A DNA stretch of 25,750 nt, filler included, from an uncultured virus (IMG/VR IMGVR_UViG_2061766007_000300) (taxonomy: Duplodnaviria; Heunggongvirae; Uroviricota; Caudoviricetes). It is 3 parts of one record of this genome, joined end to end, with 100 filler letters (N's around TTAATTAATTAA, not from the genome) between each part and the next. Parts side by side here need not be neighbours in the genome. Positions count along the whole stretch, not along the records: positions 1,069 to 6,350 come from IMGVR_UViG_2061766007_000300; 2 more parts are not named here. One strand, given 5' to 3'. The translations under genes were made by a program, and so were the position numbers. The number at the start of each line of letters is the position of its first letter. The first letter of the stretch is position 1. Positions 1,069-18,888 of this stretch are shown here, piece by piece. Under the pieces are notes generated by a model. It saw only the letters and a program-made list of their open reading frames with translations, did no database searches and was not told where the DNA came from.

Positions 1069-1240
1069 AAGTAGGGAATTAGCGTATAAGAAATAAACCT
1101 ACCGCTTGCCCATGGCGAAGCACGGGCTGCGCAGGATGAAGGATGGCCTGTGAGTTTTAGAAACTTCGTATAATAAAGTTTCTCGTGAGCGTCGCCGCCT
1201 CACGTTAAAAAACCGACTAGAATAGGTGAGGGATGCCTAT
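1069..1240 (+). ncRNA. Allelic fragment of the large structured RNA candidate (matches 5456-5629)
   Basis: Near-identical to 5456-5629, with substitutions that preserve hairpins (GCCC/GGGC vs GCTC/GAGC). Confidence 0.6.
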
Positions 1241-1314
1241 NNNNNNNNNNCATTTACCTAACATATCGGTTAATTCAATTATAAAAGGATTTAGGAATCC
1301 TTTAAGGAGATTAT

Positions 1315-2788
1315 ATGGCAGGTACTATTTCAAGAGGCATTAAAGCCCCAATTATTCGAGAAGGCGACAACATAGCAGAAATTGTAGTTAATTCGGTTTT
1401 GAAGGCTATGGAAGAAGATAATTTCCAGTTGCATGAAAGAGATATTATAGCAGTTACGGAATCCGTAGTTGCGCGCGCGGATGGAAATTATTGCACGGTA
1501 GACGATATAGCAAAAGATATAAGATTTAAATTTGGAGATAACGCAACTATTGGAGTTTTATTTCCTATTCTTAGTCGAAATAGGTTTGCTATTTGTTTGA
1601 AGGGTATAGCGCGCGGCGCAAAAAAGGTAGTAGTTCAGCTATCGTGCCCTGCAGATGAGGTTGGTAATCATCTTATAGATGAAGATTTATTTGAAAAGAT
1701 GGTTCCAAATCCAACAGTTAATTTGTTCCATGAAGATACATTTGAGCAATTATTTGGTAAACCAGTTCATCCTTTTACCGGCATAAATTATGTTGATTAT
1801 TATAAGGAAATAATTGAGGCTGAGGGTGCCGAAGCGGAAATTATATTTGGTAATAGACCTACAGATATAATTTGGTATGCGCCGGACGTCATTTGTTGTA
1901 GTATTCATAATAGGGATAGCGTCGTAGCAAAGCTTAAAGCAGGTGGCGCGCATAGGGCCCTTACTTTATGCGATATTATGAATAACTCTCATTCTATGAA
2001 TGGCGGCTNNNNNNNNNNAGATGGAAATTATTGCACGGTAGACGATATAGCAAAAGATATAAGATTTAAGTTTGGAGATAACGCAACTATTGGAGTTTTA
2101 TTTCCTATTCTTAGTCGAAANNNNNNNNNNATAATGAGCAGTACGGTCTTTTAGGAAGTAATAAAGCGAGTGAAGAAAAGCTAAAATTATTTCCTAGGAA
2201 CGCGCAAGAAGTTGTCAATGAAATTCAAACTTTATTTTGGATGAATACTGGAATAAAGATTGAAGCGATGGTCTATGGCGATGGNNNNNNNNNNGTAATG
2301 AGCAGTACGGTCTTTTAGGGAGTAATAAAGCGAGCGAAGAAAAGCTGAAGTTATTTCCTAGGAACGCGCAAGAAGTTGTCAATGAAATTCAAACTTTGTT
2401 TTGGATGAATACTGGAATAAAGATTGAAGCGATGGTCTATGGCGATGGCGCATTTAAAGACCCAGTTGGTAAGATTTGGGAACTTGCGGACCCCGTAGTA
2501 AGTCCTGCGTATACTAAAGGACTTGAGGGTTTACCGAATGAGGTTAAAATTAAGTATCTGGCTGATAATGACTTTAAGGACCTTAATGGCGAAAAACTAA
2601 ATGAAGCGATTCGCGCGAGTATACGTGAGAAAGATAAGGCTCTTAAAGGAAAAATGGTTTCTGAAGGTACTACTCCGCGCCGATTAACGGATTTAATTGG
2701 GTCATTGTGTGACCTTACGAGCGGAAGCGGCGACAAGGGTACGCCCATAGTAGTAATTCAAAACTATTTTAATAACTACGCCGATTAA
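1315..2788 (+). CDS. Coenzyme F420-0:L-glutamate ligase family (CofE-like) protein, clostridial type; broken by gaps and duplicated segments
   Basis: N-terminus ISRGIKAPIIREGD...DIIAVTESVVARA, YGDGAFKDPVGKIWELADP, and C-terminal DLIGSLCDLTSGSGDKGTPIVVIQ; AAGGAG RBS. 2019-2120 and 2294-2445 repeat earlier sequence across N gaps. Confidence 0.8.
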
Positions 2789-2800
2789 TCGGCGTTATAT

Positions 2801-2891
2801 TGGGACATAGCTCAACAGGTTAGAGCCACGGCCTTATAAGCCGTAAGCCCTCACAAGGATTTTCCGAGTTCGACTCTCGGTGTCCCTACCA
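2801..2891 (+). tRNA. tRNA-Ile(UAU) with long variable arm
   Basis: D stem GCTC/GAGC, anticodon arm ACGGC-CTTATAA-GCCGT, 19-nt variable region, T arm CCGAG-TTCGACT-CTCGG, acceptor GGGACA/TGTCCC, ACCA end. Confidence 0.85.
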
Positions 2892-2899
2892 GTTTATAT

Positions 2900-2974
2900 C
2901 GCAGAGTAGAGCAACGGTTGTTCGCTTGGCTCATAACCAAGAGGTTGTGGGTTCGAATCCCGCCTCTACAACCA
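2900..2974 (+). tRNA. tRNA-Met(CAU), initiator-like
   Basis: Anticodon arm CTTGG-CTCATAA-CCAAG, C1:A72 mismatch, GTTCGAATC T loop, ACCA end. Confidence 0.85.
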
Positions 2975-3048
2975 TTAGTCCAGGCTAGCTCTAGACTTTA
3001 AACTATTATAGTATATTTGTTGGCTAGTAGAGAATATACTAAAATTTT

Positions 3049-3121
3049 TAGACGCATACAGCAAATATAAGATATAGACGAACATATTATTTTTTTCTTG
3101 TATCTTCAGCACTCGCGTCTA
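3049..3121 (+). ncRNA. 'CAGCAAA' stem-bounded RNA element (E1)
   Basis: TAGACGC/GCGTCTA closing stem, ATA-CAGCAAA, internal AAGATA/TATCTT stem; same layout as the elements at 6984-7249. Confidence 0.55.
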
Positions 3122-3132
3122 GCAACTTATAC

Positions 3133-3222
3133 GGCAGCGTATCCTAATTGGTAAGGAGCCTGACTTGAAATCAGGTGATGGTCGGAAGGCCACTGCGCGT
3201 TCGAGTCGTGCCGCTGTCGCCA
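3133..3222 (+). tRNA. tRNA-Ser(UGA), allele 1
   Basis: Anticodon arm CCTGA-CTTGAAA-TCAGG, long variable arm, G73, CCA. Confidence 0.92.
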
Positions 3223-3226
3223 TTAT

Positions 3227-3302
3227 GTCTCCGTAGCTCAGCAGGTAGAGCATCTGACTTTTAATCAGGTGGCCATGCGTTCAAGTCGCATCGGGGACAC
3301 CA
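3227..3302 (+). tRNA. tRNA-Lys(UUU)
   Basis: Anticodon loop CTTTTAA, acceptor GTCTCCG/CGGGGAC, ACCA end. Confidence 0.93.
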
Positions 3303-3435
3303 GTTTATTCTAAGGAGAAATATAACTATGACTAAGGAAATGGTACTGACTGGGCTTTATGCTCGGCGCAATAAACTTTATAGGAATGGTCGTAACGTAA
3401 ANNNNNNNNNNAAATTTATTGAGAGGAATATAACT

Positions 3436-3566
3436 ATGACTAAGGAAATGGTACTGACCGGGCTTTATGCTCGGCGCAATAAACTTTATAGGAATGGTCG
3501 TAACGTAAAGTCGCCGGGAGTTCTTAGGAAAATCGACCGAAAAATCCGACAGCTTCAAGCCGCAGA
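3436..3566 (+). CDS. Small basic hypothetical protein (truncated by gap; duplicate start at 3328)
   Basis: MTKEMVLTGLYARRNKLYRNGRNVKSPGVLRKIDRKIRQLQAA..., with AGGA(G) RBS in both copies. Confidence 0.6.
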
Positions 3567-3610
3567 NNNNNNNNNNCTTGTATCTTCAGTACTCGCGTCT
3601 AGCAACTTAC

Positions 3611-3698
3611 GGCATCGTATCCTAATTGGTAAGGAGCCGGTCTTGAAAACCGGTGATGGGTAAAACCACTGTAGGTTCGAGTCCTACCGATGTCGCCA
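3611..3698 (+). tRNA. tRNA-Ser(UGA), allele 2
   Basis: Anticodon arm CCGGT-CTTGAAA-ACCGG, variable arm, T arm GTAGG/CCTAC, GCCA end. Confidence 0.92.
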
Positions 3699-3702
3699 CC
3701 AC

Positions 3703-3757
3703 GTCCTCGTAGCTCAGCAGGTAGAGCATCTGACTTTTAATCAGGTGGCCATGCGTT
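3703..3757 (+). tRNA. tRNA-Lys(UUU), partial second allele
   Basis: Matches 3227-3281 apart from the acceptor 5' strand; cut by an N gap. Confidence 0.75.
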
Positions 3758-3769
3758 NNNNNNNNNNTA

Positions 3770-3975
3770 GAATTATCCGGCAAAACTACTTAGCCCATAA
3801 TAAGTAGACCCGTTTAAAGAGAAAGGATAATTCCGTTTTGTACGCAGAGGATTTTATCGTATTAAACCAAGGAGTGGATAGGCGGTAAAAACGCGGTAAG
3901 GAGTGGCTGATAGACCAACTTATGGAAGTGTTGAGGTTTCAGAGGTAGGGAAGATTGGTAATTTCTTTCTGCGTA
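3770..3975 (+). ncRNA. Candidate structured RNA (two stem-closed domains)
   Basis: GAATTATCC/GGATAATTC (3770-3833) enclosing CTACTTA/TAAGTAG; TACGCAGA/TCTGCGTA (3841-3975); no ORF. Confidence 0.35.
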
Positions 3976-4038
3976 AAAAATGTATGTAAAGCGACAGGAC
4001 GCTTTATAATATATATTTATGGAGGATAGGAACTCTAT

Positions 4039-4362
4039 ATGAAGAAGTTGTATTGTAACTAGTATACGGATGAAATATTCGATACTGAAGAGAAGGCATT
4101 AGCTTCTGAGCAGAAGTATCTTGAAGCACAGGAAGCTAAGAAAAAGGCTGAAGCTGAGCGGAAGGCGGCGATTGAGAAGAAAAATTCTGAACGTGCGGCG
4201 AAGGCTAAGGAAGTCGAAGAGGCTCTCAAGGCGTATAATGAAGCGCGCAAGAATTACCAGCAGAAACTCGGTGAGTTTTGCCGGACATATGGTGCTTTTC
4301 ATACTTCGATTAAGGACGTAAATCCTTTAGACTTAGTAGACGCTATGTTTGACCTTATGTAA
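4039..4362 (+). CDS. Hypothetical coiled-coil phage protein, 107 aa; one in-frame TAG (codon 8)
   Basis: MKKLYCN(Q)YTDEIFDTEEKALASEQKYLEAQEAKKKAEAERK...FCRTYGAFHTS...FDLM-TAA; GGAGG RBS; missed by the ORF track because of the TAG at 4060. Confidence 0.8.
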
Positions 4363-4371
4363 TCTGTATAC

Positions 4372-4544
4372 GGGCGATAGGCAAGGATTAAAAGCCGCGA
4401 AGAAAATAATGCGCAGGAAGGGAACACGAGGAGGACCAACTCCGTGGCCAGGAATTTCGAAGTAGAATAAGTTGGAACTGGCTCTATGAAATAAGGTTGT
4501 GAAATCCTGATGCGATGCGGGAGATTGAAACGGCTCCCTCGCCC
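4372..4544 (+). ncRNA. Candidate ~170-nt multibranch structured RNA
   Basis: Closing GGGCGA/TCGCCC; internal AGGATT/AATCCT, CACG..GGAG/CTCCGTG, GCCAG/CTGGC and GGGAG/CTCCC stems. Confidence 0.45.
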
Positions 4545-4582
4545 AATTCTAAATTTTATAGTTAAAATTTAAATTCTAAATT

Positions 4583-4611
4583 TTGACTTTTTTTAAAATC
4601 TATGATATAAT
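4583..4611 (+). promoter_or_regulatory. sigmaA-type promoter
   Basis: TTGACT-17-TATAAT with TG extension. Confidence 0.8.
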
Positions 4612-4700
4612 ATATATAGAAGATAAGAAAAGAGAAAGAACTCTGAATTTCCATCTATTATCTATTTATCTTTCTATCTATCCTTCTTACTTCTGGTTTT

Positions 4701-4816
4701 CGGGATACCGCCAATATCGCTCTCTAGTAATTATGCGCGAGAGACTTAAGCAGCCGTAAAGGAAATCCTCATAAAACAAGTTGAGGTTGGTACGGATTAT
4801 GACGCGCAAAATCCCG
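4701..4816 (+). ncRNA. Candidate structured RNA downstream of the 4583 promoter
   Basis: CGGGAT/ATCCCG closing stem; TCTC/GAGA, CCGTA/TACGG and CCTCA/TGAGG stems; no ORF follows the promoter. Confidence 0.4.
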
Positions 4817-4858
4817 TTTAAAAAATCTCTCACCCTTAAATTTTAAGGCTTTAAAAAA

Positions 4859-4887
4859 TTGAAAGTTTCTAAAATTTATGGTATAAT
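4859..4887 (+). promoter_or_regulatory. sigmaA-type promoter driving the large ncRNA candidate
   Basis: TTGAAA-17-TATAAT with TG extension. Confidence 0.8.
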
Positions 4888-4893
4888 ATTTAT

Positions 4894-6068
4894 AGAGAGT
4901 GAGAGAGAAAGTAAAAACTTTATTCCTTTCAATTTACTTTCTCTCTCGAAGCTCAAAGCTTAATACAGGTAGATAAGCAAGCAAGGTGCGGCTATCTACA
5001 CGGTCCCAACTCCGTAAAGGTTAGAGTGACAACTAATCGAAGTAGAGGGAGCTTAAAGAGCCAGAGCAACGGCTAGGCAAGATACCATTGGCCAAGGTTG
5101 AGCCTTATGACGACCGCCCAAATCCGAGGTAGCTACTCGGCTGAACATATCGGGAATAGAATTGTGGGTCCCGTCTAAATCTTTTAAGTAGAATGGAAAA
5201 AGTTTACTACTAGAATCCAGCTTCTCCATAGGAACTGCAATAGATTCCTTAAAGGATTGGAGTAAGTAGAGTAGATTACTAAGGAATCGGACTATGCGCT
5301 TTAGTAGTTGAATTAGAATTAGTCGTAGTTAGGTATTAACTAGAGTTAGCCTTACTTCTATTGCTAAAATAACTTAGCGGCCCGCTCCGTCAATGCGGCG
5401 CGCCCTGTGCGATAAATAGGGTGACTAGGGTTCAAATAGTAAACACCCGCGTTTTTAGTAGGCAATTAACGTATAAGAAATAAACCTACCGCGTGCTCTT
5501 GGCGGAAGCAACGAGCTGCACAGGAGGAGGGATGGCCTGTGAGTTTTAGAAACTTTGTATAATAAAGTTTCTCGTGAGTGTCGCCGCCTCACGTTAAAAA
5601 ACCGACTAGAATAGGTGAGGGATGCCTATTGACTTTCAAGGATGTGGTACGCGTTAGTCCGAAGTTCAAGATGAACTTAGAGGCCGTTCTTCTTAGGACG
5701 ACCTCAGGTTATGGGTAGGTACTTCTATAAGGATTAGACAGTATCTCGGAAGTACGTATTTATCCGAGCGGGTAGGCCATCAATCCGCGATATAAAAAGT
5801 AATTAGTACCGATGGGAGGTCGCATGAACCTCAGAAAGCCTACGATTCCGGTGGGAGAAGAAATGCACGTGGGAAATAGGTAAAGAGAAAACCGTATGTG
5901 AGTAATTTACCTATCTTTAAGCGAAAGCGGGGTTCAGAAATAGTTGCAGACCGTAAGTAGTTTTAATGATGTGCCGGCTTTACAATAGTTAAAGTGGCCG
6001 AGTTTGGGGAAGTTCTTTGATAAAAAACTTTCTACCTTTTAAGGACTTTGGGTTACATAAGTCCTTTT
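4894..6068 (+). ncRNA. Large (~1.1 kb) structured non-coding RNA candidate in a GOLLD/ROOL-like context
   Basis: No ORF in the track, GC-richer than flanks, a dense series of hairpins, bounded by a promoter and a terminator-like hairpin (AAGGACTT/AAGTCCTT); compensatory changes versus the allele at 1069-1240. Confidence 0.7.
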
Positions 6069-6143
6069 ATAATTGAATTAACCACCCTCCATCTCACTTT
6101 CCTTTCTTTTCCGGTTATATCGGTTAATTCAATTATAAAAGGA
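6062..6143. repeat. 22-bp perfect inverted repeat
   Basis: TCCTTTTATAATTGAATTAACC (6062-6083) / GGTTAATTCAATTATAAAAGGA (6122-6143). Confidence 0.9.
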
Positions 6144-6176
6144 TTTAGAAATCCTTTAAGGAGATTNNNNNNNNNN

Positions 6177-6350
6177 ATTATGGGTAAGTACTTCTATAAG
6201 GAATAGATAGTATCTCGGAAGCTGGCCAGGGATGTGGCAATGTAAGTCTTCCCTCCAGGACTGCTGGATGACCCGAATAAGTTTGGGAAAGTTCTTTGAT
6301 AAAAACTTTCTACCTTTTAAGGACTTTGGGTTACATAAGTCCTTTTATAA
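6177..6350 (+). ncRNA. Variant 3' fragment of the large RNA with a shorter alternative internal segment
   Basis: Matches 5709-5752 and 6001-6072, but 6222-6279 replaces 5753-6000. Confidence 0.5.
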
Positions 6351-6460
6351 NNNNNNNNNNNNNNNNNNNNNNNNNNNNNNNNNNNNNNNNNNNNTTAATT
6401 AATTAANNNNNNNNNNNNNNNNNNNNNNNNNNNNNNNNNNNNNNNNNNNNGTAAAAATAA

Positions 6461-7978: not shown

Positions 7979-8097
7979 TTTAAAAAATTTTAGAATTGGT
8001 ACGAAAATTTTATAATGGGATTTATTTACTCCTACTTATATTTAGAAAATTAAATCCCAAGCACAGGTTCTACCCTTTTGCTTGTTATTATATACCA

Positions 8098-8129
8098 TAG
8101 GGTGGCTCACAAGGCCGCCCTAATTTTTT
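8098..8129 (+). terminator. Terminator-like hairpin just upstream of the 8149 gene
   Basis: TAGGGTGGC-TCACAAG-GCCGCCCTA followed by ATTTTTT. Confidence 0.55.
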
Positions 8130-8148
8130 AGGTATAGAGGAGAGTTAT

Positions 8149-9855
8149 ATGGCAGTAGGAGTTGGTAGTTTAGTAACTTTAGATGGCTTAATTGGCGTCC
8201 GAGACGAAAGCCAACAAATAATTTTAGATATTGAAAATCAAATACAATCATTAATAGGTAGTAATAATACTCTTGATGCTACTATTAAAAGATTAGAAGA
8301 TTATTTAGTTAGTACTTATAAACAAGAACAATATATAAAAAATATCTTTGGTGTTAATTCTATTTAGGAATTACAAGATAAGTTTTCTGATTTTTATGAT
8401 AAATCTGGTTTAAATAATTTTACTGGTAACAGTTTAAATACTAAAGTTATAGAGGCTTTTGTCCGCCATACTGACAAAAGCAAAAAAGAATTTTATGATA
8501 AATTAACAAAAATTGAAAAACAAGTTAATGCTATGGTCCCAAAAGTTGTAAATAGAAATTTAGGCTCAGAGGCTGGCCAAAAAGCAATTTTTGATGTCGC
8601 TTTAGCAATATTTAATACTGAATTTGGGACTGGGGCCCGTTTGGGGAAGCATGCTGTAAGATCTACAAAAGGTTTTAATTTTGATTTTGATAAAGGTTTT
8701 TTTACCATGATTGGTAGAGATTTAAGTGAAGTTGAAAAGAAAATAATTATAAATCATAAAATAGAAGATTTTAATATTAATTTTGAAGTAGAAGGTAATT
8801 CTGTATATAACACTTTTGATATTTATAATATTTTAGCCGCAGGTGGTAGTAAAGCTATGACGCCTACAGAAGCTAAAGAATATGAAAAAACCCATCCAGG
8901 GTTTATAGATAGTGCTAATTAGGAAATTATTAATTTTATAATTGATAATATAGATACAAATTATAAAGATAATGCTAGAAAAATTATAAATAATTTAATG
9001 TTGCAAAAAGACCCCACAATGTTTTTTAGTGGAAATAGTGCAACTGAAGTAATTGGTATTTTTGGAGAAGTTAGTGCGTATATTGCTATTATGAATTTAA
9101 TACCAAACGCCAATTTAGCAGATGTAGAATGGGTAGCTAATTAGACAAAAGATGGGAAAAAATTATCTGTTGATTTTTATTTGGACAAAATTCTTGGCAT
9201 TTAGGTTAAAAACACAATAAGAGACTATTCTTGGGCGTAGGGCTTCAATATTGGTTTTGTAGATAAAAATGCTAGCAGTGTATTAAGATAGTTACAAAAT
9301 AAATATGATATGAATTTTACTGAATTAGAGTCTTTACTGCTTTCTCATAATTTTAATGTACCTTATAAAAGAAAAGGTAGAAGATATATAGAAGTAAGTT
9401 ATAATACTACTTTTAAAGGTGATGATTATAGATTTAATGAATTTGTAGAAGTTAAAGAAGATACAGAAAATTTAATAACTATATTAAATACTATTTTTAC
9501 TGCTTTTGCTCCAGATTTTTTATTTATGTCTGGTGGAGAAGATTTTGAAAATTAGTTGGCTAATATTGAGCAAAATCTAGAAGAAGGAAATACTGGTAAT
9601 AATTTATATATTGTCGCAGGAAAACCATTTTTTATTAGTACCATTTTAAATTAGATTATACAAAATTTATATACCTTGAAAAAAGATAGTGAAAGACTTT
9701 TTAAAGTTGAAGCTTCTATAGGAAATGTAATTTTAAAATCTAAAAGCGCAGCGGTTGCAGGTAATATAGTAGCTTATAAAAATGCTAGCATTAATAAAAA
9801 GGAATAGATTGAAAATATGAGTGTGAAAATGAAAAGTTCTTTCTTCTTCTCTTAA
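8149..9855 (+). CDS. 568-aa hypothetical protein with a PD-(D/E)xK-like (D...QxK) motif; nine in-frame TAG
   Basis: ORF-track pieces 8149, 8533 and 9310 share one frame, joined by TAGs at 8365, 8920, 9142, 9202, 9238, 9289, 9553, 9652 and 9805, ending TAA at 9855; GAGGAG RBS; GIFGE...VDFYL...GI(Q)VKN. Confidence 0.85.
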
Positions 9856-10327: not shown

Positions 10328-10416
10328 AGGGGAGTAGTGTAATGGCAACACGGGAGACTCTAAATCTCCAGCTTCTGAGGCGAAAGATCAGGGTTCGAAT
10401 CCCTGCTCCCCCGCCA
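10328..10416 (+). tRNA. Amber suppressor tRNA (anticodon CUA), presumably Gln-inserting, with long variable region
   Basis: Acceptor GGGGAG/CTCCCC, D stem GTGT/ACAC, anticodon arm GGAGA-CTCTAAA-TCTCC, T arm CAGGG-TTCGAAT-CCCTG, GCCA end. Confidence 0.92.
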
Positions 10417-10486: not shown

Positions 10487-10596
10487 ATTATTAGAGAATA
10501 GGAGAATAAGTTTATATGAGTAAGAAATTACACTTAATTCATTATATGAATTATCATAATTTTCTACTTATATATAGAAAATAAGGGGTGAAAATT

Positions 10597-11493
10597 ATGA
10601 GTTATACAGTTTATATGCACATTAATAAAATAAATAATAAAAAATACATTGGCTTTACTGGATACTCTTTAGATGAAAGATGGAAAAATGGAAAGGGTTA
10701 TAGTAAAGATACTCCTTTTGGCTAGGCAATTGAAAAATATGGGTGGGATAATTTTGACCATTAGATTTTGTTTTCAAATTTAACTTTAGACGAAGCCGCA
10801 AGAAAAGAACAAGATTTAATTGATGAATATCATACTTATTTAGACGACCCATTATGTTGGGGTTATAATGCCACGAGAGGAGGAGAAGGACGTAGTAAAG
10901 TAAGGCACGAAGAAGTAACTTCTTTATGGGAATAGGGATATTCAACAAAACAAATTGGATAGAAATTAGGTGTTGATAGAAATACTGCCGGAAGAATATT
11001 ATAGAATTATGGAAATTATTCTATAAAAGAAAGCGTAGAAAGAGGATATGAGCAAAGAATTGTTACAAATTCTCGTCCAGTTTCTCAATACGATTTAAAT
11101 GGAAATTTTATAGCTACTTATCTTAGTATGAGTGATGCTTATGAAGCAATTCATGGTTATAGAGATACAGAGCCAGATGGCACAAGACATTCAAATACTA
11201 TTGGCTGTGCATGCCGAGAAGGGATAAAGGCATACGGTTTTCAATGGACTTACAAAGACGCTCCTCCTCCCGGGCCTTATCGTAAAGAAAAAAATTACCA
11301 TGATGGGAAAGCGGTTGATTAGTATAATCTAGATGGCACTTTTGTAAAGACCTATTAGAGTGCATCCGAAGCAGCAAGACAGTTAGGATTAAAAAGTCCT
11401 GGTGGGATATCTGATGTTTGTCGAAAACATAAAGGTACTTCAGCAAAATATTTATGGAAGTTTCATAACGAAAAAGAGTGGTGGATAAAATGA
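10597..11493 (+). CDS. GIY-YIG homing endonuclease-like protein with two NUMOD1-type repeats, 298 aa; seven in-frame TAG
   Basis: MSYTVYMHINKINNKKYIGFT...RW...KYGWDNF...E..LI...GYN.T.GGEG; repeats PVSQYDLNGNFIATY and AVD(Q)YNLDGTFVKTY; ends TGA overlapping the next ATG. Confidence 0.9.
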
Positions 11494-12227
11494 GTAAGAA
11501 ATACTTCGTAACAAGTGACGTTCATGGATTTTATAAAGAACTTATGAAGGCTCTTGAGGGCGCCGGCTACGATAAAAATAATAAAGACCATGTGTTTGTG
11601 AGTTGCGGAGACCTTTTTGATAGAGGTCCAGACGCGCGCGAAGTACTCCGATTTGTAAATTCTATTCCAGACGAGAGAAAAATTCTTATTAGGGGTAACC
11701 ATGAGGTTCTTATGAAAGAAATGATATTGAACTTGAGTGATTATCCGCGAACTCACGATATTCGTAATGGTACTTGGAATAGCGCAATAGATATTACGAG
11801 AGCCGATTACGTAGAAGTTATGCGCGCGATGAGGAAGAATAATGAGTGGTGGAAGTACTATAATAGTTGCGTTAACTATGCGGAAGTAGGTAATTATATT
11901 TTCGTCCATGGGTGGTTGCCTATTAATTCTACTCCGAATGGCCCCGTTGTAAGAAATGACTGGCGTAAATTGGATGATAAGGATTGGGAAGAGGCTAGTT
12001 GGTTGAACGGTATGGCTATGTGGACATATGGCGCGCGTATTAAAGATAAGACTATTGTATGCGGTCATTGGAACGTAAGTTGGGGTTGGAAGAATATTCG
12101 TAGAGCTTGTAAGGATGGATATAAGGGAGATGCCATTCACGATAGCTTTATTGATGAGGGTATTGTCGCACTGGATGCGTGTACGGTAGTTAGTAGGAAA
12201 ATTAACTGTTATACTTTTGAGGAATAA
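11490..12227 (+). CDS. Calcineurin-like metallophosphoesterase (Ser/Thr phosphatase family)
   Basis: SDVHG, GDLFDRG, RGNHE, VHG and GHW motifs; ATG 11490 preferred over GTG 11478. Confidence 0.9.
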   Translation: MSKKYFVTSDVHGFYKELMKALEGAGYDKNNKDHVFVSCGDLFDRGPDAREVLRFVNSIPDERKILIRGNHEVLMKEMILNLSDYPRTHDIRNGTWNSAIDITRADYVEVMRAMRKNNEWWKYYNSCVNYAEVGNYIFVHGWLPINSTPNGPVVRNDWRKLDDKDWEEASWLNGMAMWTYGARIKDKTIVCGHWNVSWGWKNIRRACKDGYKGDAIHDSFIDEGIVALDACTVVSRKINCYTFEE

Positions 12228-12231
12228 ATAC

Positions 12232-12336
12232 ATGAAACCTATTTTTGAAGGATTTTTGGATGGGTTACAGATAGCATTTACTATATTCTGTATTCTTTGT
12301 CTTATTGGAATTCTATTTAGTTTATTTAGTTGTTAA
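12232..12336 (+). CDS. Small hydrophobic protein, 34 aa
   Basis: MKPIFEGFLDGLQIAFTIFCILCLIGILFSLFSC; GAGGA RBS; fills the gap between genes. Confidence 0.5.
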   Translation: MKPIFEGFLDGLQIAFTIFCILCLIGILFSLFSC

Positions 12337-12345
12337 GAGGCGCAT

Positions 12346-12531
12346 ATGGAAATTGAAACTTATAATGTTTATATTAGTAATGACTGTGTAGCTAGAGATA
12401 TGTCTTTAGATACTGCAATAATTTTGGTTAGAGGGTTATTTCATAATTATTATAATGAACCGATGCCCTCGATTCGTATTGAACGTCAATGGAGAAAGCC
12501 TACCGAGGAAGAAATTAAAGCTTGGGAGTAA
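12346..12531 (+). CDS. Hypothetical protein
   Basis: ORF with GAGG RBS, co-oriented in the operon. Confidence 0.75.
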   Translation: MEIETYNVYISNDCVARDMSLDTAIILVRGLFHNYYNEPMPSIRIERQWRKPTEEEIKAWE

Positions 12532-12540
12532 AGGAGTAGT

Positions 12541-12747
12541 ATGATAGAAAAAGAATTAAAAATTAACCGAATTGCAGAAGTAATTTTAAATGAACTTTAT
12601 TGCGCGGAGTGTGAAAGTTGCACTTGGGACACTAAAGTGACTCATGATTGTACAGATTGTAGCTATCAATATTGTGATTGGCTTGTATCAGATGAGTACG
12701 CGCGCCATGTGGCAGAACTTATTATTGACGCATTAGAAAAGGAGTAA
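12541..12747 (+). CDS. Hypothetical Cys-rich protein
   Basis: CAECESC...CTDC...C; AAGGAG RBS. Confidence 0.75.
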   Translation: MIEKELKINRIAEVILNELYCAECESCTWDTKVTHDCTDCSYQYCDWLVSDEYARHVAELIIDALEKE

Positions 12748-12750
12748 TTT

Positions 12751-13962
12751 ATGTTAAATCCCAATACAAATGAAAGAGAACTTGCTTATGTAGTTCTTAT
12801 TGATGAAATTATGCCTATTGAAGGGTATGACCGTGTTGAACTCGCGCGAGTTGGCGGTTGGCATGTGATTGTGCAAAAGGGGCAGTTTAAAGTTGGCGAC
12901 CCAGCAATTTACTTTGAGGTAGACAGTAAGGTTCCTTCTGACCGCGAGTGTTTTGCTTTCCTTGCAAAGCGCAAGTATAAGATTAAGACCCTTCGTATGT
13001 GTGGAGTTATTTCTCAGGGTTTGCTTATGCATCCATCTGATTTTGGTTGGCACGTAAATCTTCAAGGTGAGATTGATGATGGTGAGATGACTCATACTCC
13101 CATAGATGAAACCCGTTTTCTTACTAAGAAGCTCGGTGTAACTCATATTGAGGATGAAGATAATAAGCCTGCGCAGAAAGTAGATAAGTATAAGGCTATG
13201 GCGCAGCGTCGACCCAATATTTTTAAACAAAAGTGGGCGCGTTGGTTTATGAGACGAGAATGGGGTCGTAAGATTATGTTCGCGCTGTTCGGTCAAAAGA
13301 AAGATAAAAAGAATGGCTGGCCTTCTCATATTGCAGCAAAGACTGATGTCGAACGTGTTCAAAATATGATTTGGGTACTTAAAGATAAGCGTCCTTATGT
13401 CGCTAGCGAAAAAGTTGATGGGTCTAGTTTTTCCGCTATGGTAGAACGCGGTCGATTTGGTAAAATGAAGTATTATATTTGTTCTCGTAATGTGGTCTTT
13501 GATACTCCTGATGCCCCTTGTTTCTATGATAGTAATATTTATTTTGAAGCTTGGAATAAGTATAATTTAAAAGAGATTATTACTAATATTCTTAATGATT
13601 ATAATCTTCCTAATGTTGCTATTCAAGCAGAGATTTATGGCGATGGAATTCAGAAGCGTGATTATTCTCTTCATAACGGAGAACATCATATGGCAGTATT
13701 TCATATTGTTTCTAATGGTGTAAAATTCCCTATGGATAAGACTGTAGAAATCTGTGAGAAATATGGACTTCCTCACGTTCCTATTGTAAATGATAATTAT
13801 ATTCTTCCCGATACTATTGATGAACTTCAGGCATATGTTGAGAGCGCGCAGTCGATGATTGATGGGAAGCCGCGCGAAGGTATTGTCTTTTATGATAAGG
13901 AAACCGGTCAGCAATACTTTAAGTTTGTATCTCCAGAATTCTTAATGAAATATCATAATTAA
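12751..13962 (+). CDS. ATP-dependent RNA ligase, DRB0094-like (N-terminal OB-like domain)
   Basis: N-terminal I.PIEGYDRVELARV.GW.VIV.KG.FK.GD..IYFEVDS; nucleotidyltransferase motifs EKVDGSS, AEIYG, EGIV and FKFVSPEFL. Confidence 0.88.
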   Translation: MLNPNTNERELAYVVLIDEIMPIEGYDRVELARVGGWHVIVQKGQFKVGDPAIYFEVDSKVPSDRECFAFLAKRKYKIKTLRMCGVISQGLLMHPSDFGWHVNLQGEIDDGEMTHTPIDETRFLTKKLGVTHIEDEDNKPAQKVDKYKAMAQRRPNIFKQKWARWFMRREWGRKIMFALFGQKKDKKNGWPSHIAAKTDVERVQNMIWVLKDKRPYVASEKVDGSSFSAMVERGRFGKMKYYICSRNVVFDTPDAPCFYDSNIYFEAWNKYNLKEIITNILNDYNLPNVAIQAEIYGDGIQKRDYSLHNGEHHMAVFHIVSNGVKFPMDKTVEICEKYGLPHVPIVNDNYILPDTIDELQAYVESAQSMIDGKPREGIVFYDKETGQQYFKFVSPEFLMKYHN

Positions 13963-13987
13963 AATATTAGAGTGATGGCTATTAAAT

Positions 13988-14039
13988 CCTACTTAGAAAT
14001 TAGAAGGGAAGAAATATTCCTATCTAATTTCTAAGTAGG
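13988..14039 (+). promoter_or_regulatory. 17-bp inverted repeat covering the RBS of the downstream endonuclease gene
   Basis: CCTACTTAGAAATTAGA / TCTAATTTCTAAGTAGG, ending 9 nt before ATG 14049. Confidence 0.7.
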
Positions 14040-14048
14040 TATTAAATT

Positions 14049-14828
14049 ATGAGCAAATTAATAGATTTAGTTGGGAATCGTTATGGACGATTAGTAGTAT
14101 TAGAAAAAGCTGAACCAGATAAACATAGTCATACAAGATGGTTATGTCAATGTGATTGTGGAAATTAGAAAATCATTGACGGAGGTTCTTTAAAAAAGGG
14201 CTTAACAAAATCTTGTGGTTGTTTAAAAAAAGAATAGTTAAAATAGTATAATGATTCTAATGTGGTTAATGAAGTCGGTAATGTATATGGTTATCTTACA
14301 GTAATAAGGCGAGCAGAGGATTCAGAGATTACCCCAAAAGACGGGCGTGCGCAATGGATTTGTAGATGTAAATGTGGTAATGAAATAATAACTACTGGTA
14401 AATTATTGCGTGATGGCCATAAATTATCTTGTGGGTGTATGAAAAAATCTAAAGGTGAGCTTTAGATAGAACTTTTATTAGAGAAATAGGGAATAAGCTA
14501 TGCAGAACAATATACTGTTTATATCGAATAGAATAATTATGAAGTAAAATAGAAGCATCCATATTATTTTGATTTTGCTGTATTAAATAATAATAAATAG
14601 TTGCTATATTTAATTGAATATGATGGTTCACAACATTTTATTTATAAAGAGAATAGTGATTTTTGGAATGACAAGGACCAATTTAATAAGACATAGATTA
14701 GAGATTAGTTAAAAAATCAATGGTGTAAGGATAATAATATTCCTTTAATACGAATACCTTATACGCATTTAGATGATATTAGTATCGAAGATTTGTAGTT
14801 AGAAACAAGCAAATATATAATTAATTAA
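14049..14828 (+). CDS. Homing endonuclease-like protein: two CxCxCG...SCGC zinc-binding repeats plus a Vsr/DUF559-like nuclease domain, 259 aa; eleven in-frame TAG
   Basis: DLVGNRYGRLVV...WLCQCDCG...SCGC twice, then SKGE...YFDFAV...LIEYDGSQHF...KNQWC...IPLIRIPY; continuous only with TAG read-through; ends TAA 14828. Confidence 0.88.
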
Positions 14829-14832
14829 TTTT

Positions 14833-14863
14833 TAAGACGCGCGCAATGTGCGTCTTATTTTTT
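14833..14863 (+). terminator. Intrinsic terminator
   Basis: TAAGACGCGC-GCAAT-GTGCGTCTTA plus T run. Confidence 0.8.
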
Positions 14864-14890
14864 GACAAAAATTAAAATTTATGATATAAT
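14862..14890 (+). promoter_or_regulatory. sigmaA-type promoter
   Basis: TTGACA-17-TATAAT with TG extension. Confidence 0.85.
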
Positions 14891-14922
14891 ATTATTAGAA
14901 AATAGAGAAAGGATATATAATT

Positions 14923-15270
14923 ATGGACGGCGTAACAATTCTTCAAGTAATAGAAAAAACTTTTTTAAATGAAACTTCTGAACATATTATCGCTGGTTCA
15001 GTTATAGTAGGTATAATAGCAATATTTCTTACTATGATTTTTTGGAGTGAAATTGGTCTTAATAATGGTTGGACGATTGCATCAATGTTACTTTTATTTA
15101 GTTGTATAACTCTTATTATTCTTGAAGCTACTTGTGGCGTTCGTATTACAGAAATAACTTATCGAGTACTAGTAGATAGTAATGTAGATATGAATGAATT
15201 CTTTTCTAAATATGAACTTATTGAGCGAGAAGGACTTATATATTTAGTTAGAGAGATAGGAGTAATGTAA
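14923..15270 (+). CDS. Hypothetical membrane protein (two hydrophobic segments)
   Basis: Hydrophobic stretches IIAGSVIVGIIAIFLTMIFW and WTIASMLLLFSCITLIIL; AAGGA RBS. Confidence 0.8.
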   Translation: MDGVTILQVIEKTFLNETSEHIIAGSVIVGIIAIFLTMIFWSEIGLNNGWTIASMLLLFSCITLIILEATCGVRITEITYRVLVDSNVDMNEFFSKYELIEREGLIYLVREIGVM

Positions 15271-15271
15271 A

Positions 15272-16117
15272 ATGGAACTTAAGTCTAATTTCCATGGTCG
15301 AGAATGGATTATGGAACGAGTAAGAAAGCATTATGAAACCGCAGTAGCTTACTTCGGTAGTGAAAAGTTTGTAGTTGGTGCGTTTCTTGTTGGTTCTCAG
15401 AATTATAAATTAGATATTGAAACGTCAGATGTAGACGTTAAAGTATTTGTTCTTCCTTCTCTTGAATCTATTATCGAGCTTGGCGCGCCGGAAAGTTCTA
15501 CATGGGTATCTGAGGGCGGCGAGCATGAAGATTTTAAGGATTTTAGGCTTGTAATTAAGGAATTGGAAAAGGGTTCTCCCAATATGCTGGAGACCCTTTT
15601 CACCGATTATTATATTATTAATCCGGATTATAATTTTATAATTGCACGGCTTAGAGCATATAGAGAACGTATCGCAAATAATAACCAAAAGGGTATTTTT
15701 AATGCGTTTTATGGTATGGCGCAAAGATTTATTAAGCTTTATAATGAAGGAAAATCAGATATTAAATCGGTAGTAACTCTTTTAAGAATTAGAGATTTTA
15801 TTTATAGTTATTTCGTATTAGGAGAAACTTATAATAAGTCTCTTGTTCCTTCTAATTTATTTACATTACGAACTTTAAGAACCCAACCAGTTGAACAAGA
15901 AAAGTTAAAGGCTTTTGTAGATGAGGCAACCAAAGATTTAGAAGAGTTTAAATCTTTTAGTGAGAAGAAGGCCGCGCGCGGTAATGACACGTTGGGGAAA
16001 GTAGTTTTAAGAGATATATTATATGATTTAATGTATACTCATTTAAAGAATGAAATTAAAGATTTTAGGTTTACTAATTTTGATGAGGTTATAAAAAATG
16101 AGAGTGTACTTTTGTAA
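15272..16117 (+). CDS. Nucleotidyltransferase, DNA polymerase beta superfamily (RNA-repair-associated type)
   Basis: LVGSQNYKLDIETSDVDVK (GS...DxD) and KGSPNMLETLF motifs. Confidence 0.85.
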   Translation: MELKSNFHGREWIMERVRKHYETAVAYFGSEKFVVGAFLVGSQNYKLDIETSDVDVKVFVLPSLESIIELGAPESSTWVSEGGEHEDFKDFRLVIKELEKGSPNMLETLFTDYYIINPDYNFIIARLRAYRERIANNNQKGIFNAFYGMAQRFIKLYNEGKSDIKSVVTLLRIRDFIYSYFVLGETYNKSLVPSNLFTLRTLRTQPVEQEKLKAFVDEATKDLEEFKSFSEKKAARGNDTLGKVVLRDILYDLMYTHLKNEIKDFRFTNFDEVIKNESVLL

Positions 16118-16235
16118 ATATTGTGGATATAGTAAAAGGAAAGAAAACGATGATAATCTTTGCCCTCGATGCTTCCATTTTATGGCTGAAGAAGAATGGG
16201 AAATGGATGTGTTGATTAATAAAGATGGAGTTTAA
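16098..16235 (+). CDS. Small zinc-ribbon protein, 45 aa
   Basis: MRVYFCKYCG...LCPRC...; GAGGT RBS. Confidence 0.6.
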   Translation: MRVYFCKYCGYSKRKENDDNLCPRCFHFMAEEEWEMDVLINKDGV

Positions 16236-16237
16236 AT

Positions 16238-16266
16238 TTGAAATTTTTTAAAATTTATGATATAAT
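16238..16266 (+). promoter_or_regulatory. sigmaA-type promoter
   Basis: TTGAAA-17-TATAAT with TG extension. Confidence 0.8.
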
Positions 16267-16295
16267 ATATATAGAGAATAGAAAAGGAATCTAAT

Positions 16296-16556
16296 ATGAA
16301 GAAAATTTTTATTGCAGATGTTCAATGGTGGAATGAATTTGACGAGAAGGATGTAACCGAAACTGTTCTTGTTCAGGCTAATAGCTTCATTGATGCTATG
16401 GAGCAGATTGAAAATCAGTATAAAGATACCCTTGAGGAGATTCATTATTTTACGTGCGTTGGTAACGGCTATGTCGTGCATCTTGGAAGTCGTGAAGTTA
16501 ATCGCGAAGAAGTGGATACGGTAGTTAGCTGCATTACTGAAAATAATTGTTTTTAA
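16296..16556 (+). CDS. Hypothetical acidic protein
   Basis: First ORF after the promoter, AAGGA RBS. Confidence 0.8.
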   Translation: MKKIFIADVQWWNEFDEKDVTETVLVQANSFIDAMEQIENQYKDTLEEIHYFTCVGNGYVVHLGSREVNREEVDTVVSCITENNCF

Positions 16557-16567
16557 GGAAAACTAAA

Positions 16568-16819
16568 ATGACTATTTATATTGTTGAAAATTATTATGAT
16601 GAACCTTTTTATAGGGCTCATAAAACTATTGAAAGCGCGCGGCTTGGTCTTTTAGAAGAGTATACAAAGAGCTGTCTGCCGGAAATGATTGAAATTATTA
16701 AAGAAGGTAAAAGTGTTGCCGAAACCGCGGATAATATTAAGACCGACCTTGAGAATATTCTTGCGCATGGTTATGTTGAAGACTTCGCTATTATCCATGA
16801 ATGTGAATTAGAGGAGTAA
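16568..16819 (+). CDS. Hypothetical acidic protein
   Basis: ATG 16568 follows an AAGGA RBS (preferred over TTG 16547). Confidence 0.75.
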   Translation: MTIYIVENYYDEPFYRAHKTIESARLGLLEEYTKSCLPEMIEIIKEGKSVAETADNIKTDLENILAHGYVEDFAIIHECELEE

Positions 16820-16821
16820 TT

Positions 16822-17283
16822 ATGGTAGCTAAAACCTTTCAGAATCTGCCGCAGGTGGGTGAACCGTTTGAGAGCGGCGGCAAGATGTATGTAAATGTAC
16901 AGGGTAAGAACGGTAATGTGCGACGGGTACGTTGGTACGAAGTTGATGAATATATTAAGATGTATCCTGATACACCGCGCGCGGAAATAGACCCATATTA
17001 TAAAACTAAGAAACGTACTCTTTTTGGTGATGGTGAGTATGTATGGATTTTTAAGCCAGTAACGCACGATTTAATGGAACTTTTGGAACAGAGTTCTCAT
17101 GTAAGATTCCATACGTATTGGGGTTGGTACGCGCGTACAGATGTCCCTGATGAAATTTTGGATGCGCTTCATGAAAGATTTGTTATGCGCCAGCTCTATT
17201 GGGATGATATCGCGGTTGATGAAGAGACGTTGAAACCGCAAAAAGAAGTAGATAAAATAGTTAAAGGAGTTTTAGGAATCTAA
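16822..17283 (+). CDS. Hypothetical phage protein (3' part duplicated at 17296-17479)
   Basis: GAGGAG RBS, 153-aa ORF. Confidence 0.85.
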   Translation: MVAKTFQNLPQVGEPFESGGKMYVNVQGKNGNVRRVRWYEVDEYIKMYPDTPRAEIDPYYKTKKRTLFGDGEYVWIFKPVTHDLMELLEQSSHVRFHTYWGWYARTDVPDEILDALHERFVMRQLYWDDIAVDEETLKPQKEVDKIVKGVLGI

Positions 17284-17478
17284 TGNNNNNNNNNNCGTAA
17301 GATTCCATACGTATTGGGGTTGGTACGCGCGCACAGATGTTCCCGATGAAATTTTGGATGCGCTCCATGAAAGATTTGTTATGCGCCAACTCTATTGGGA
17401 TGATATTGCGGTTGATGAAGAGACGTTGAAGCCGCAAAAAGAAGTAGATAAAATAGTTAAAGGAGTTTTAGGAATCTA

Positions 17479-18888
17479 ATGTTCTTTCAGATGCTTGTGG
17501 GTATTAGTGGTAGCGGGAAAAGTACTTATGCCCATTATATGAAGAATACATTTTTAGAGCCGGTAGAAATTGTTTCTTCTGACTCTATTCGTGAAGAACT
17601 TTATGGGGACGAATCTATCCAGGGTAATCCTAATAAGGTTTTTCGTATTATGCTCGCGCGCACTAAGCGGTACTTGAGTGAGGGTAAGTCGGTNNNNNNN
17701 NNNNNNNNNNNNNNNNNNNNNNNNNNNNNNNNNNNNNNNNNNNNNNNNNNNNNNNNNNNNNNNNGATGATTGTTGACCCACGTATGTGTAGCGAAAATCA
17801 GAAGCTGCGCGAACGTCATGTAAGTGATGAAGTAATCTACCACCAGGTTCAACAGTTTCGTCCACCTCACATTAGCGAGGGTTGGGATGCAATTACGATG
17901 GATGTATATGCTCCGGAAGATGAAAAACGTTACTTGGCCCATCTTTATAAAATGACTCTTGAAGTTGACCAGCATAACCCTCATCATTCNNNNNNNNNNT
18001 GGGAAAAGCACCTATGCCCATTATATGAAGAATACATTTTTAGAGCCAGTAGAAATTGTTTCTTCCGACTCTATTCGTGAAGAACTTTATGGGGATGAAT
18101 CTATCCAGGGTAACTCTAATAAAGTCTTCCGTATTATGCTCGCGCGCACTAAGCGGTACTTGAGTGAGGGTAAGTCGGTTATTTATGATGCTACGAATTT
18201 GAGCGATCGACGCCGTATAAATCTTTTAAAAGAGCTTAAAGGATATGATTGTGCGAAACTTTGCCATGTAATTATCGTTGACCCGCGTATGTGTAGTGAG
18301 AATCAGAAGCTGCGCGAACGTCATGTAAGTGATGAAGTAATTTATCACCAGGTCCAGCAGTTTCGTCCACCACATTTGAGTGAAGGATGGGATGCAATTA
18401 CTATGGATGTGTATGCACCAGAAGATGAAAAACGCTACCTGGCTCATCTTTATAAAATGACTCTTGAAGTTGACCAGCATAACCCTCATCATTCTTTAAC
18501 TATTGGGAAACATAATTACCAAGCTTATATAAATTCTATTCAATATTTTGATGATAAAGTTTCTGCGGCTGCGGCATGGCATGATTTCGGGAAACTTATG
18601 ACTCAGACTTTTGATAGTAATAAGGTCGCGCATTATTATTCCCATGAAAATGTAAGTGCATATTATTATCTACTTTTTGAAGCTGAAAGTATTAGTCTTA
18701 ATACCGTTACGTGTTGCGATAAAGCTAACGATGGTAGGTATGATTATCTTGACGTAGCGTGGTTAATCGCGCATCATATGGACTTTTATAAAGATGAAAA
18801 ATATCTTAAAAAAGTTTATGAACGTGTTGGGTATGAATTGTTTAATAAACTTTATAAGCTTCACGATTGTGATGAAAGGGCGCATTAA
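17479..18888 (+). CDS. Polynucleotide kinase-like P-loop (AAA_33) domain fused to an HD phosphohydrolase; two overlapping allelic copies split by gaps
   Basis: GISGSGKST, SSDSIRE, DATN, then NPHH...H, WHDFGK, HENVSAY, HHM and terminal D; 18000-18489 repeats 17514-17989. Confidence 0.88.

Follow-up and report, generated by a model that had tools for sequence, protein, structure and literature searches.

The window analysed here, a 25,750-nucleotide (nt) stretch of DNA from an uncultured Caudoviricetes virus (IMG/VR IMGVR_UViG_2061766007_000300), carries on its plus strand the gene of a large non-coding RNA of about 1.17 kb. That this RNA is conserved and non-coding, that it has a covarying 5' core, and that it lies in the context of a tRNA island are firmly established by the comparisons below. 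We consider it probable that it represents an as yet undescribed family of structured non-coding RNAs, large at 0.6-1.2 kb, from TAG-recoding cattle-rumen phages, with a role like that of the ROOL (Rumen-Originating, Ornate, Large) RNA. No description of it was found in Rfam 15 or in the literature searched, a search that subscription journals and supplements lay outside. The gene and its promoter are placed as follows.

4859-4887, plus strand: promoter, with the -35 element TTGAAA at 4859-4864, a 17-nt spacer and TGgTATAAT, the -10 element lying at 4882-4887
4894-6072, plus strand: gene of the large non-coding RNA (about 1.17 kb), running from its predicted start as far as the U-tract past a 3' hairpin

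The promoter is near consensus, matching 11 of 12 positions with the TG extension present, and is as strong as the original prediction, made from the sequence alone, had held. The predicted transcription start of the RNA is A4894, and the promoter together with the initial transcribed sequence is kept in all homologs. Promoters of the same family recur in the window at 4583-4611, ~9859 and ~10458. The family (TTGAC/AA, 17 nt, TGnTATAAT and a purine-rich start) is common to the whole phage group, with many places in G001-G028, and BLAST of the RNA against 32 sister records gave mostly promoter matches (20 of the 32 records). The promoter family and the AAGGAG ribosome sites suggest a Firmicutes-type host.

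The region 4894-6072 is firmly shown to be non-coding. With translation table 11, the sole open reading frame (ORF) of at least 50 amino acids (aa) inside it is on the minus strand (5053-5229, 58 aa), and with TAG read as glutamine no ORF of at least 60 aa was found inside the region. Stops crowd all six frames (TAA 8-15, TAG 5-14 and TGA 1-8 per frame), so there is no long frame under any reassignment that keeps TAA as a stop. None of the 11 window ORFs of at least 30 aa had a tblastn match in the other groups of homologs, and the small ORFs of 40-137 codons found in homologs vary in place and frame, none being conserved. The claim of more than 1 kb without a credible ORF therefore holds, and by the same stop counts, TAG-as-glutamine ORFs and tblastn no conserved frame was seen under code 15. 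The GC content of the region is 0.43-0.45, compared to about 0.27-0.41 in most coding DNA.

The family so far consists of 18 loci with 12 distinct variants of 595-1179 nt, from rumen phage and metagenome contigs and with the window included; all variants share the promoter and the 5' hairpin (P1). Group A comprises the window, L099 and L113 (full-length members of 1179 and 1130 nt; L113 stops at 490 nt, at its contig end). Members of group B are 943-1160 nt long, group B2 is L138 and L135 (1009 nt), and group C is L013 (595 nt). Between groups, BLAST matches are limited to both ends and a few short modules. L015 (1069 nt) and L013 share the window's promoter and first ~55-75 nt, and their RNA is followed directly by a tRNA array.

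The RNA-ligase relatives comprise 32 IMG/VR loci, three of which (two distinct, G013-15) hold a weakly similar RNA. Of 51 matches to a 5'-hairpin pattern in metagenome contigs, 12 were true copies, and of six matches to a core pattern, two were further IMG/VR records. An 18-mer pattern of P1 matched nine loci, just three of them true and already known. In the 32 sister records, model R1 matched G013-15 alone, and BLAST of the RNA returned promoter matches alone beyond G013-15. Exact patterns for 5597-5621 and ~5107-5128 of the window matched nothing in IMG/VR, nor did the 20-nt core of the latter in the JGI metagenomes. The RNA had no blastn match in INPHARED, where relatives of the RNA ligase reach at most 31% identity. 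Two pattern scans of 185,579 species genomes gave 0 and then 23 matches, none confirmed by model R2 (described below); L139 was a false match as well. The pattern CAACTCC...AAGTNAGAG was discarded; it gave nine matches on the 32 records compared to 10 for its reversed control, and it misses the window because the window is without the N. An ORF-free-gap screen for analogous RNAs was too permissive for use.

Side-by-side reading of three divergent groups brought out a common plan in the first ~300 nt of the RNA. In the window, its elements are these.

4901-4915 / 4933-4947, plus strand: P1, a 15-bp polypurine/polypyrimidine 5' hairpin with the loop motif UUUAUUCCUUUC
4957-5053, plus strand: four-way junction (model R2, alignment A11)
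4957-4960 / 5050-5053, plus strand: P1c, the closing helix
4969-4975 / 4993-4999, plus strand: P2 (variable insert)
5000-5003 / 5012-5015, plus strand: P3, with loop UCCCAACU, which contains CAAC across groups
5019-5024 / 5033-5038, plus strand: P4, with the 8-nt loop AGUGACAA
5054-5186, plus strand: second sub-domain, P5-P7 (model R3, alignment A13)
~5054-5059 / 5180-5186, plus strand: P5, bulged in the window, enclosing a variable part, P6 and P7
5124-5128 / 5136-5140, plus strand: P6, with loop GUAGCUA
5151-5155 / 5169-5173, plus strand: P7
5117-5120 with 5165-5168, plus strand: candidate pseudoknot

P1 is nearly invariant across the three groups and has compensatory changes in L138/L135. 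Its loop UUUAUUCCUUUC and pyrimidine arm are invariant in the three groups, although the RNA body can hardly be aligned between them, and the CUUUC of the P1 3' arm recurs in the loop. In the four-way junction, P1c surrounds UAAURCRGG, P2, P3, P4 and AAGU(N)AGAG, and the conserved joiners are UAAUACAGG and AAGUAGAGG.

Model R2 was built on group B alone with the proposed structure, and the other groups were aligned by Infernal. In the resulting alignment A11, 98.3% of 181 cells were paired compared to 79.8 ± 2.0 in shuffles, and both-side changes occurred in 13 of 21 pairs compared to 8.0 in shuffles; neither value was reached in any of 500 shuffles. The alignment score was 0.585 compared to 0.233, again reached by 0 of 500. 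Controls with slid partners gave 25-48% paired cells and 0-2 both-side-changed pairs. Because model-fitted alignments lean towards the model, helices were also counted at fixed offsets from conserved motifs, with no fitting. By this count P1c was paired in 12 of 12 cells with four of four positions compensatory, and P2 in 25 of 25 cells with four of five positions compensatory, the slid controls being far lower. The window itself matched model R2 with 44.8 bits (E 1.3e-8), with all R2 helices paired. In alignment A13, which covers the second sub-domain, pairing held in 95.4% of 130 cells and both-side changes occurred in 12 of 21 pairs, values as high being reached in 0 of 500 shuffles; by helix, P5 and P6 were 100% paired and P7 96.7%. 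Model R3 matched L099 at E 0.27, L113 at E 1.9e-6 and L013 at E 8.5e-8. Homologs with covariation, which the original prediction had proposed to look for, thus exist, with the 5' core well above shuffled and slid controls. We regard it as shown that compensatory changes maintain the pairing of eight helices in a 5' core of ~300 nt.

At the gathering score, the Rfam 15 scan of the window returned tRNAs alone. The rows at E <= 10 inside 4894-6068 were all well below threshold and are taken as chance matches (Rhino_CRE, 27.1 bits compared to 45; SAM_alpha, 17.7 compared to 36; Twister-P5, 17.5 compared to 37.6). In the same interval there was no group I or II intron, RNase P RNA, riboswitch or ribozyme by Rfam and no tmRNA by ARAGORN. 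The homologs L015 and L013 had no Rfam family match at the gathering score or at E <= 10. The ROOL model (RF03087, gathering 99.1 bits) gave no row even at E <= 10 in the window, L015 or L013, and as a positive control the same model found full-length copies of 232-317 bits in nine of the 32 sister records. GOLLD gave no row in the whole-library scans of the same three sequences. In the reverse direction, models R2 and R3 run with filters off had no match to the ROOL loci, rows inside ROOL having E > 1. Judged by these sequence models, the new RNA is a member of neither ROOL nor GOLLD. Of the two options in the original prediction, a long member of the GOLLD/ROOL class or a new family, the homologs and their covariation favour the new family, and membership was not borne out, the window and two homologs giving no Rfam match at the gathering score and no full-length one.

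The published accounts, as far as their available portions go, describe ROOL as a rumen/phage RNA in tRNA islands, possibly co-transcribed with the tRNAs (PMC5737381). Both ROOL and GOLLD appear there as large RNAs of phages or prophages, located close to tRNA islands and with function unknown, among very few bacterial or phage non-coding RNAs so large and complex, and ROOL abundance is reported to equal that of 16S rRNA (PMC5737381; bioRxiv 10.1101/2024.12.08.627333). Both are described as forming RNA-only homo-oligomeric cages via kissing loops and A-minor contacts (bioRxiv 10.1101/2024.12.08.627333). The new RNA resembles ROOL in its phage and rumen origin, its tRNA island, its promoter type and its 595-nt member, which is ROOL-sized. 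It differs from ROOL in its motifs and helix plan, and most members are about twice the ROOL length. The RNAs measure 595-1179 nt, and in their supported core there is a single four-way junction together with a second sub-domain and no more than one weak pseudoknot. In the portions describing ROOL, the 5' and 3' parts are intertwined, whereas the new RNA is conserved in its 5' third and variable beyond it. GOLLD, by the same partial accounts, is like the new RNA in exceeding 800 nt, in its phage or prophage origin near tRNA islands, at times with tRNAs inside or beside the RNA, and in having a conserved and a variable half, but its conserved region is 3' rather than 5'. As a kind, the new RNA shares with both that it is phage-encoded and near tRNAs, with one gene between in the window's group.

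Among the 32 sister records, ROOL occurs in nine, the new RNA in three and both in none. Each of the nine ROOL copies lies within 3 kb of tRNA genes on its own strand, and at least five of the nine have, by eye, a promoter of the same type (TTGAC/TTGAT-17-TGnTATAAT) 25-45 nt upstream. Two GC-richer stretches in ROOL-carrying phages (L012 710-1158 and L011 508-1032; GC 0.41-0.45, no long frames, near tRNA arrays and outside the ROOL genes) may be further RNAs.

The order of genes around the RNA was read from independent contigs. For the window lineage they give a 146-aa ORF, the promoter at 4583, the promoter at 4859 with the RNA, a CofE-like gene and tRNAs; in L099, the CofE-like gene follows the RNA. 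Because this order is another than that of the window, contig 1069-6350 has been circularly permuted by scaffolding, and 1251-1312 equals 6105-6166. The displaced neighbours stand in the window as follows.

1251-3302, plus strand: displaced downstream neighbours, namely the ribosome-binding-site spacer, the CofE-like gene and tRNA-Ile(UAU), Met, Ser(UGA) and Lys
1315-2154 and 2396-2788, plus strand: CofE-like gene (Pfam F420_ligase, F420-0:gamma-glutamyl ligase), split by duplicated pieces
2801-2891: tRNA-Ile(UAU), long form (also L015 2437-2528 and L138 2336-2427)

The CofE-like gene lies between the RNA and tRNA-Ile in the window lineage only, L099 included, and is absent from groups B, B2 and C; no relatives of its protein were found in IMG/VR. 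In groups B, B2 and C the 3' hairpin and U-tract of the RNA lie directly against tRNA-Ile(UAU), the first of an array that continues with Met, Ser(UGA), Lys and Gln; the distance from the RNA end to tRNA-Ile(UAU) is 0-5 nt in groups B and C. The length of this tRNA differs, several phages having a form of 91-92 nt and others one of 76-77 nt. Neither in the window nor in the group B and C loci was a promoter found between the RNA and the genes after it, so the RNA and what follows it likely form one transcription unit. In L013, a skipping-rope RNA (RF02924, 41.4 bits compared to a gathering score of 36.7) lies among the tRNA genes at 4684-4753.

In six RNA libraries from three studies, 30-41% of sampled window words were present. 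Contigs from three of these libraries, in which all three studies are represented, cover 4976-6051, 4995-5752 and 5027-5679, leaving 4930-4975 and everything beyond 6051 uncovered, gaps that say nothing on transcript ends. The contig over 4976-6051 is 1028 nt long and wholly inside the RNA, and the nominal contig depth was 15-62 on the RNA compared to 7-8 on the neighbouring ORF.

Beyond the core, the RNA is made of modular hairpins, and two further pieces of the window duplicate parts of it.

5187-6039, plus strand: variable modular 3' region, hairpins with conserved loops
5495-5498 / 5513-5516, plus strand: helix
5519-5541, plus strand: hairpin with loop AGGAGGGAUGG
5611-5629, plus strand: hairpin with loop UGAGGGAUG
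5816-5832, plus strand: hairpin with loop CGCAUGA
6041-6048 / 6059-6066, plus strand: 3' hairpin AAGGACUU / AAGUCCUU, terminator-like, followed by a U-rich tract to 6072
1069-1240, plus strand: strain-variant duplicate of RNA positions 5457-5629, 95% identity
6177-6350, plus strand: strain-variant duplicate of the RNA 3' part, equal to 5708-5752, another 53-nt segment and 6005-6072

Helix 5495-5498 / 5513-5516 reads GCUC/GAGC in the window, GCCC/GGGC in the 1069 fragment and CCUC/GAGG in L099, and T5497C and A5514G co-occur in an RNA-library contig of run X15. The original prediction had called the 1069-1240 piece an allele; the changes that it reported (GCCC/GGGC for GCTC/GAGC, and GCAGG compared to ACAGG) are there, but the "alleles" are assembly duplicates, pieces of strain variants. 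Under the invariant loop UGAGGGAUG, the stem ATAGG/CCTAT changes to ACGAA/TTCGT (comparison of L099 and the 1069 fragment), and the stem under the loop CGCAUKA occurs in three variants with 15 of 15 cells paired. The 3' hairpin is kept with covarying stems in groups A and B; a simple terminator scan omits it because its loop is longer than 8 nt. All nine hairpins listed in the original prediction are present in the sequence. The motif GGGAUG lies in hairpin loops at 5529 and 5619 and in the duplicates at 1230 and 6229, all on the plus strand, and occurs five more times elsewhere on that strand; its complement is nowhere in the window.

Variation is concentrated in this region. Four public runs show hardly any differences over 4995-5286 and many from 5400 onward, and the X15 contig has 95 other letters in place of 5609-5749. 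The 53-nt segment of piece 6177-6350 stands in place of 5754-5990; this exchange for a short form recurs in X15 and X16, whose RNA-library contigs continue the short form (loose ends 5752/5753). Modules also stand in another order between groups, with 925-976 of the window's RNA equal to L015 354-404 and 451-476 of the same RNA equal to L111 682-707.

We infer that the RNA is co-transcribed with the tRNAs, accumulates stably and has a ROOL-like role. The strong sigma-70-type promoter would drive it as the first element of a unit with the downstream tRNAs, a unit that in the window lineage would also take in the CofE-like gene. It would be released by the 3' hairpin/U-tract or by RNase P cleavage at the abutting tRNA-Ile and would accumulate as a stable trans-acting molecule, doing the job that ROOL does in sister phages. 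Most speculatively, it might self-associate through conserved palindromic hairpin loops, as ROOL and GOLLD cages do by kissing loops, and might then act on the tRNA or translation apparatus during infection. The loops in question are self-complementary: UAGCUA in P6 (AGCU in all groups) and, for P4, UCAUGA (group B) or UGUACA (L013); a GCCGGC palindrome is kept in groups A and B. We tentatively propose, as possible rather than probable, that giant phage RNAs that self-assemble include a third class, evolved independently, to which this RNA would belong. The core would oligomerise by the P6, P4 and GCCGGC loops, the assembly would display or enclose strain-variable hairpins, and the RNA would take the place of ROOL in the tRNA/tRNA-repair island of sister phages.

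If the ROOL-like reading is true, an unrelated family in ROOL's slot, the two excluding each other among close phage relatives, would mean that selection maintains the slot, a strongly transcribed large RNA heading a tRNA and tRNA-repair island, and not a particular fold. Genetics would then have naturally occurring swap pairs to work with, and structural studies of RNA a new object. Should the RNA be of a self-assembling class, a comparison of ROOL and non-ROOL sister genomes would make the function of these RNAs directly testable.

A number of results weigh against a structured, ROOL-like RNA. Within the core, the pseudoknot is weak (82% paired and one double change in A13), the window has a bulge in P5 and misses model R3 at E <= 1, though it does have P6 and P7, both paired, and the P6-P7 module is absent from L015 and L116. 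In the first model-fitted alignment (A9), the covariation of P3 and P4 was not significant, 48 and 58 of 500 shuffles reaching the observed values; we attribute this to a misaligned seed, since superseded by one from group B alone. Self-association would have to contend with a P4 loop that is not palindromic in the window's group and with 6-nt palindromes that are not enriched (10 compared to about 19 in shuffles). Folding energies in 150-nt windows are ordinary (mean z -0.79 in the RNA, -0.74 upstream and -0.14 in coding DNA) beyond two spots, the 5' hairpin (z -5.1) and 5644-5868 (z about -2), with no other outliers in the RNA, and energy alone is not above chance. Nor is a single global fold supported. 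On the minimum-free-energy (MFE) structure of the window, L099 substitutions broke 49 pairs one-sidedly and kept 18, and the 10 kept double changes were equalled by two of six slid controls (11 and 10); this substitution test lends no support to the original prediction where it took the ~1.1 kb as one structured RNA. RNAalifold fell to 18 pairs when partial fragments were included, and for group B it gave double changes in just eight of 285 pairs. The permutation of modules means that independent hairpin units fit better than one rigid body. The mutual exclusion with ROOL is suggestive and not significant, because the expected overlap is below one in 32 mostly fragmentary records. The library contigs are supportive only, as they cannot show transcription, strand, ends or level. 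Finally, the family is narrow, every member coming from bovine or rumen material.

Part of the same evidence fits a leader that works chiefly in cis on the tRNA operon and has no trans function. Its P1 would be a put/nut-like antiterminator acting over about 2-3 kb of RNA that is untranslated and strongly structured, and the remainder would steer processing or shield the precursor. We consider this unlikely. It accommodates the abutment of the RNA on tRNA-Ile, the lack of an intervening promoter, also before the CofE-like gene of the window, the far higher conservation of P1 and its loop than of the body, and a 3' hairpin that is a weak terminator, absent from the terminator scan list. A leader, however, needs neither 0.6-1.2 kb nor a covarying, possibly pseudoknotted 300-nt core, and sister phages have in the same place, behind the same kind of promoter, ROOL, a free-standing RNA. 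The 1028-nt contig also ends inside the RNA with no tRNA sequence, a weak point as contigs define no ends. Antitermination elements of the put/nut type, such as HK022 put RNA and the rrn nut-like leaders, share with this RNA a conserved stem-loop right behind the promoter, at the head of a long, structured unit that is not translated, but they measure only about 70 nt or consist of short box motifs. Such an element would cover P1 only and not the 300-nt core, and there was no such Rfam match.

The modularity of the 3' two-thirds raises another alternative, an array of independent hairpin modules on a conserved 5' domain, serving to bind proteins or RNAs as decoys or sponges, or as the source of several small RNAs, and not as one fold. 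The swapping, deletion and permutation of modules across strains and groups would follow from it, as would the loops UGAGGGAUG and CGCAUKA kept over covarying stems, the four plus-strand GGGAUG copies and the unsupported global MFE. We think it quite unlikely as a replacement for the ROOL-like reading, with which it is compatible: ROOL and GOLLD, in the available portions of their descriptions, also have variable linkers, and the 5' core acts as one multi-helix unit.

That the region is a non-functional spacer, decayed coding DNA or a protein under an unusual code is extremely improbable; the phage does read TAG as sense and homologs hold chance small ORFs, but TAA is frequent in all six frames with no ORF conserved in place or frame, the GC content is above that of the flanks, and the promoter, ends and compensatory base-pair changes are conserved.

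The TAG recoding is seen in some genes of the window phage. Three ORFs are open only with TAG as sense: 7996-9855 (10 in-frame TAGs), 10588-11493 (seven) and 14049-14828 (11). One is of unknown function, one is a GIY-YIG and one an HNH homing endonuclease, and a tRNA with anticodon CUA (10328-10416) sits among them. The RNA ligase and its neighbouring genes need no recoding.

The window is several contigs in series, separated by N44-TTAATTAATTAA-N44 spacers at 969-1068 and 6351-6450. It has 20 further N runs, and its N10 scaffold gaps are bordered by duplicate pieces that are 88-99% identical; these are strain variants set in series by the scaffolder. Near-identical DNA was present in 20 of 24 listed public runs from nine studies, the runs being recorded as bovine gut, bovine or unspecified metagenomes. 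Proteins of the phage include a Sak4-like protein, homing endonucleases, an RNA ligase, a polynucleotide kinase-like protein, a phosphoesterase and a nucleotidyltransferase. Downstream of the tRNA island, several of these form a tRNA/RNA-repair-like module (11478-18888).

11478-12227: phosphoesterase
12751-13962: RNA ligase
15272-16117: nucleotidyltransferase, weak RlaP-like match
17959-18888: AAA_33/KTI12 polynucleotide-kinase-like protein

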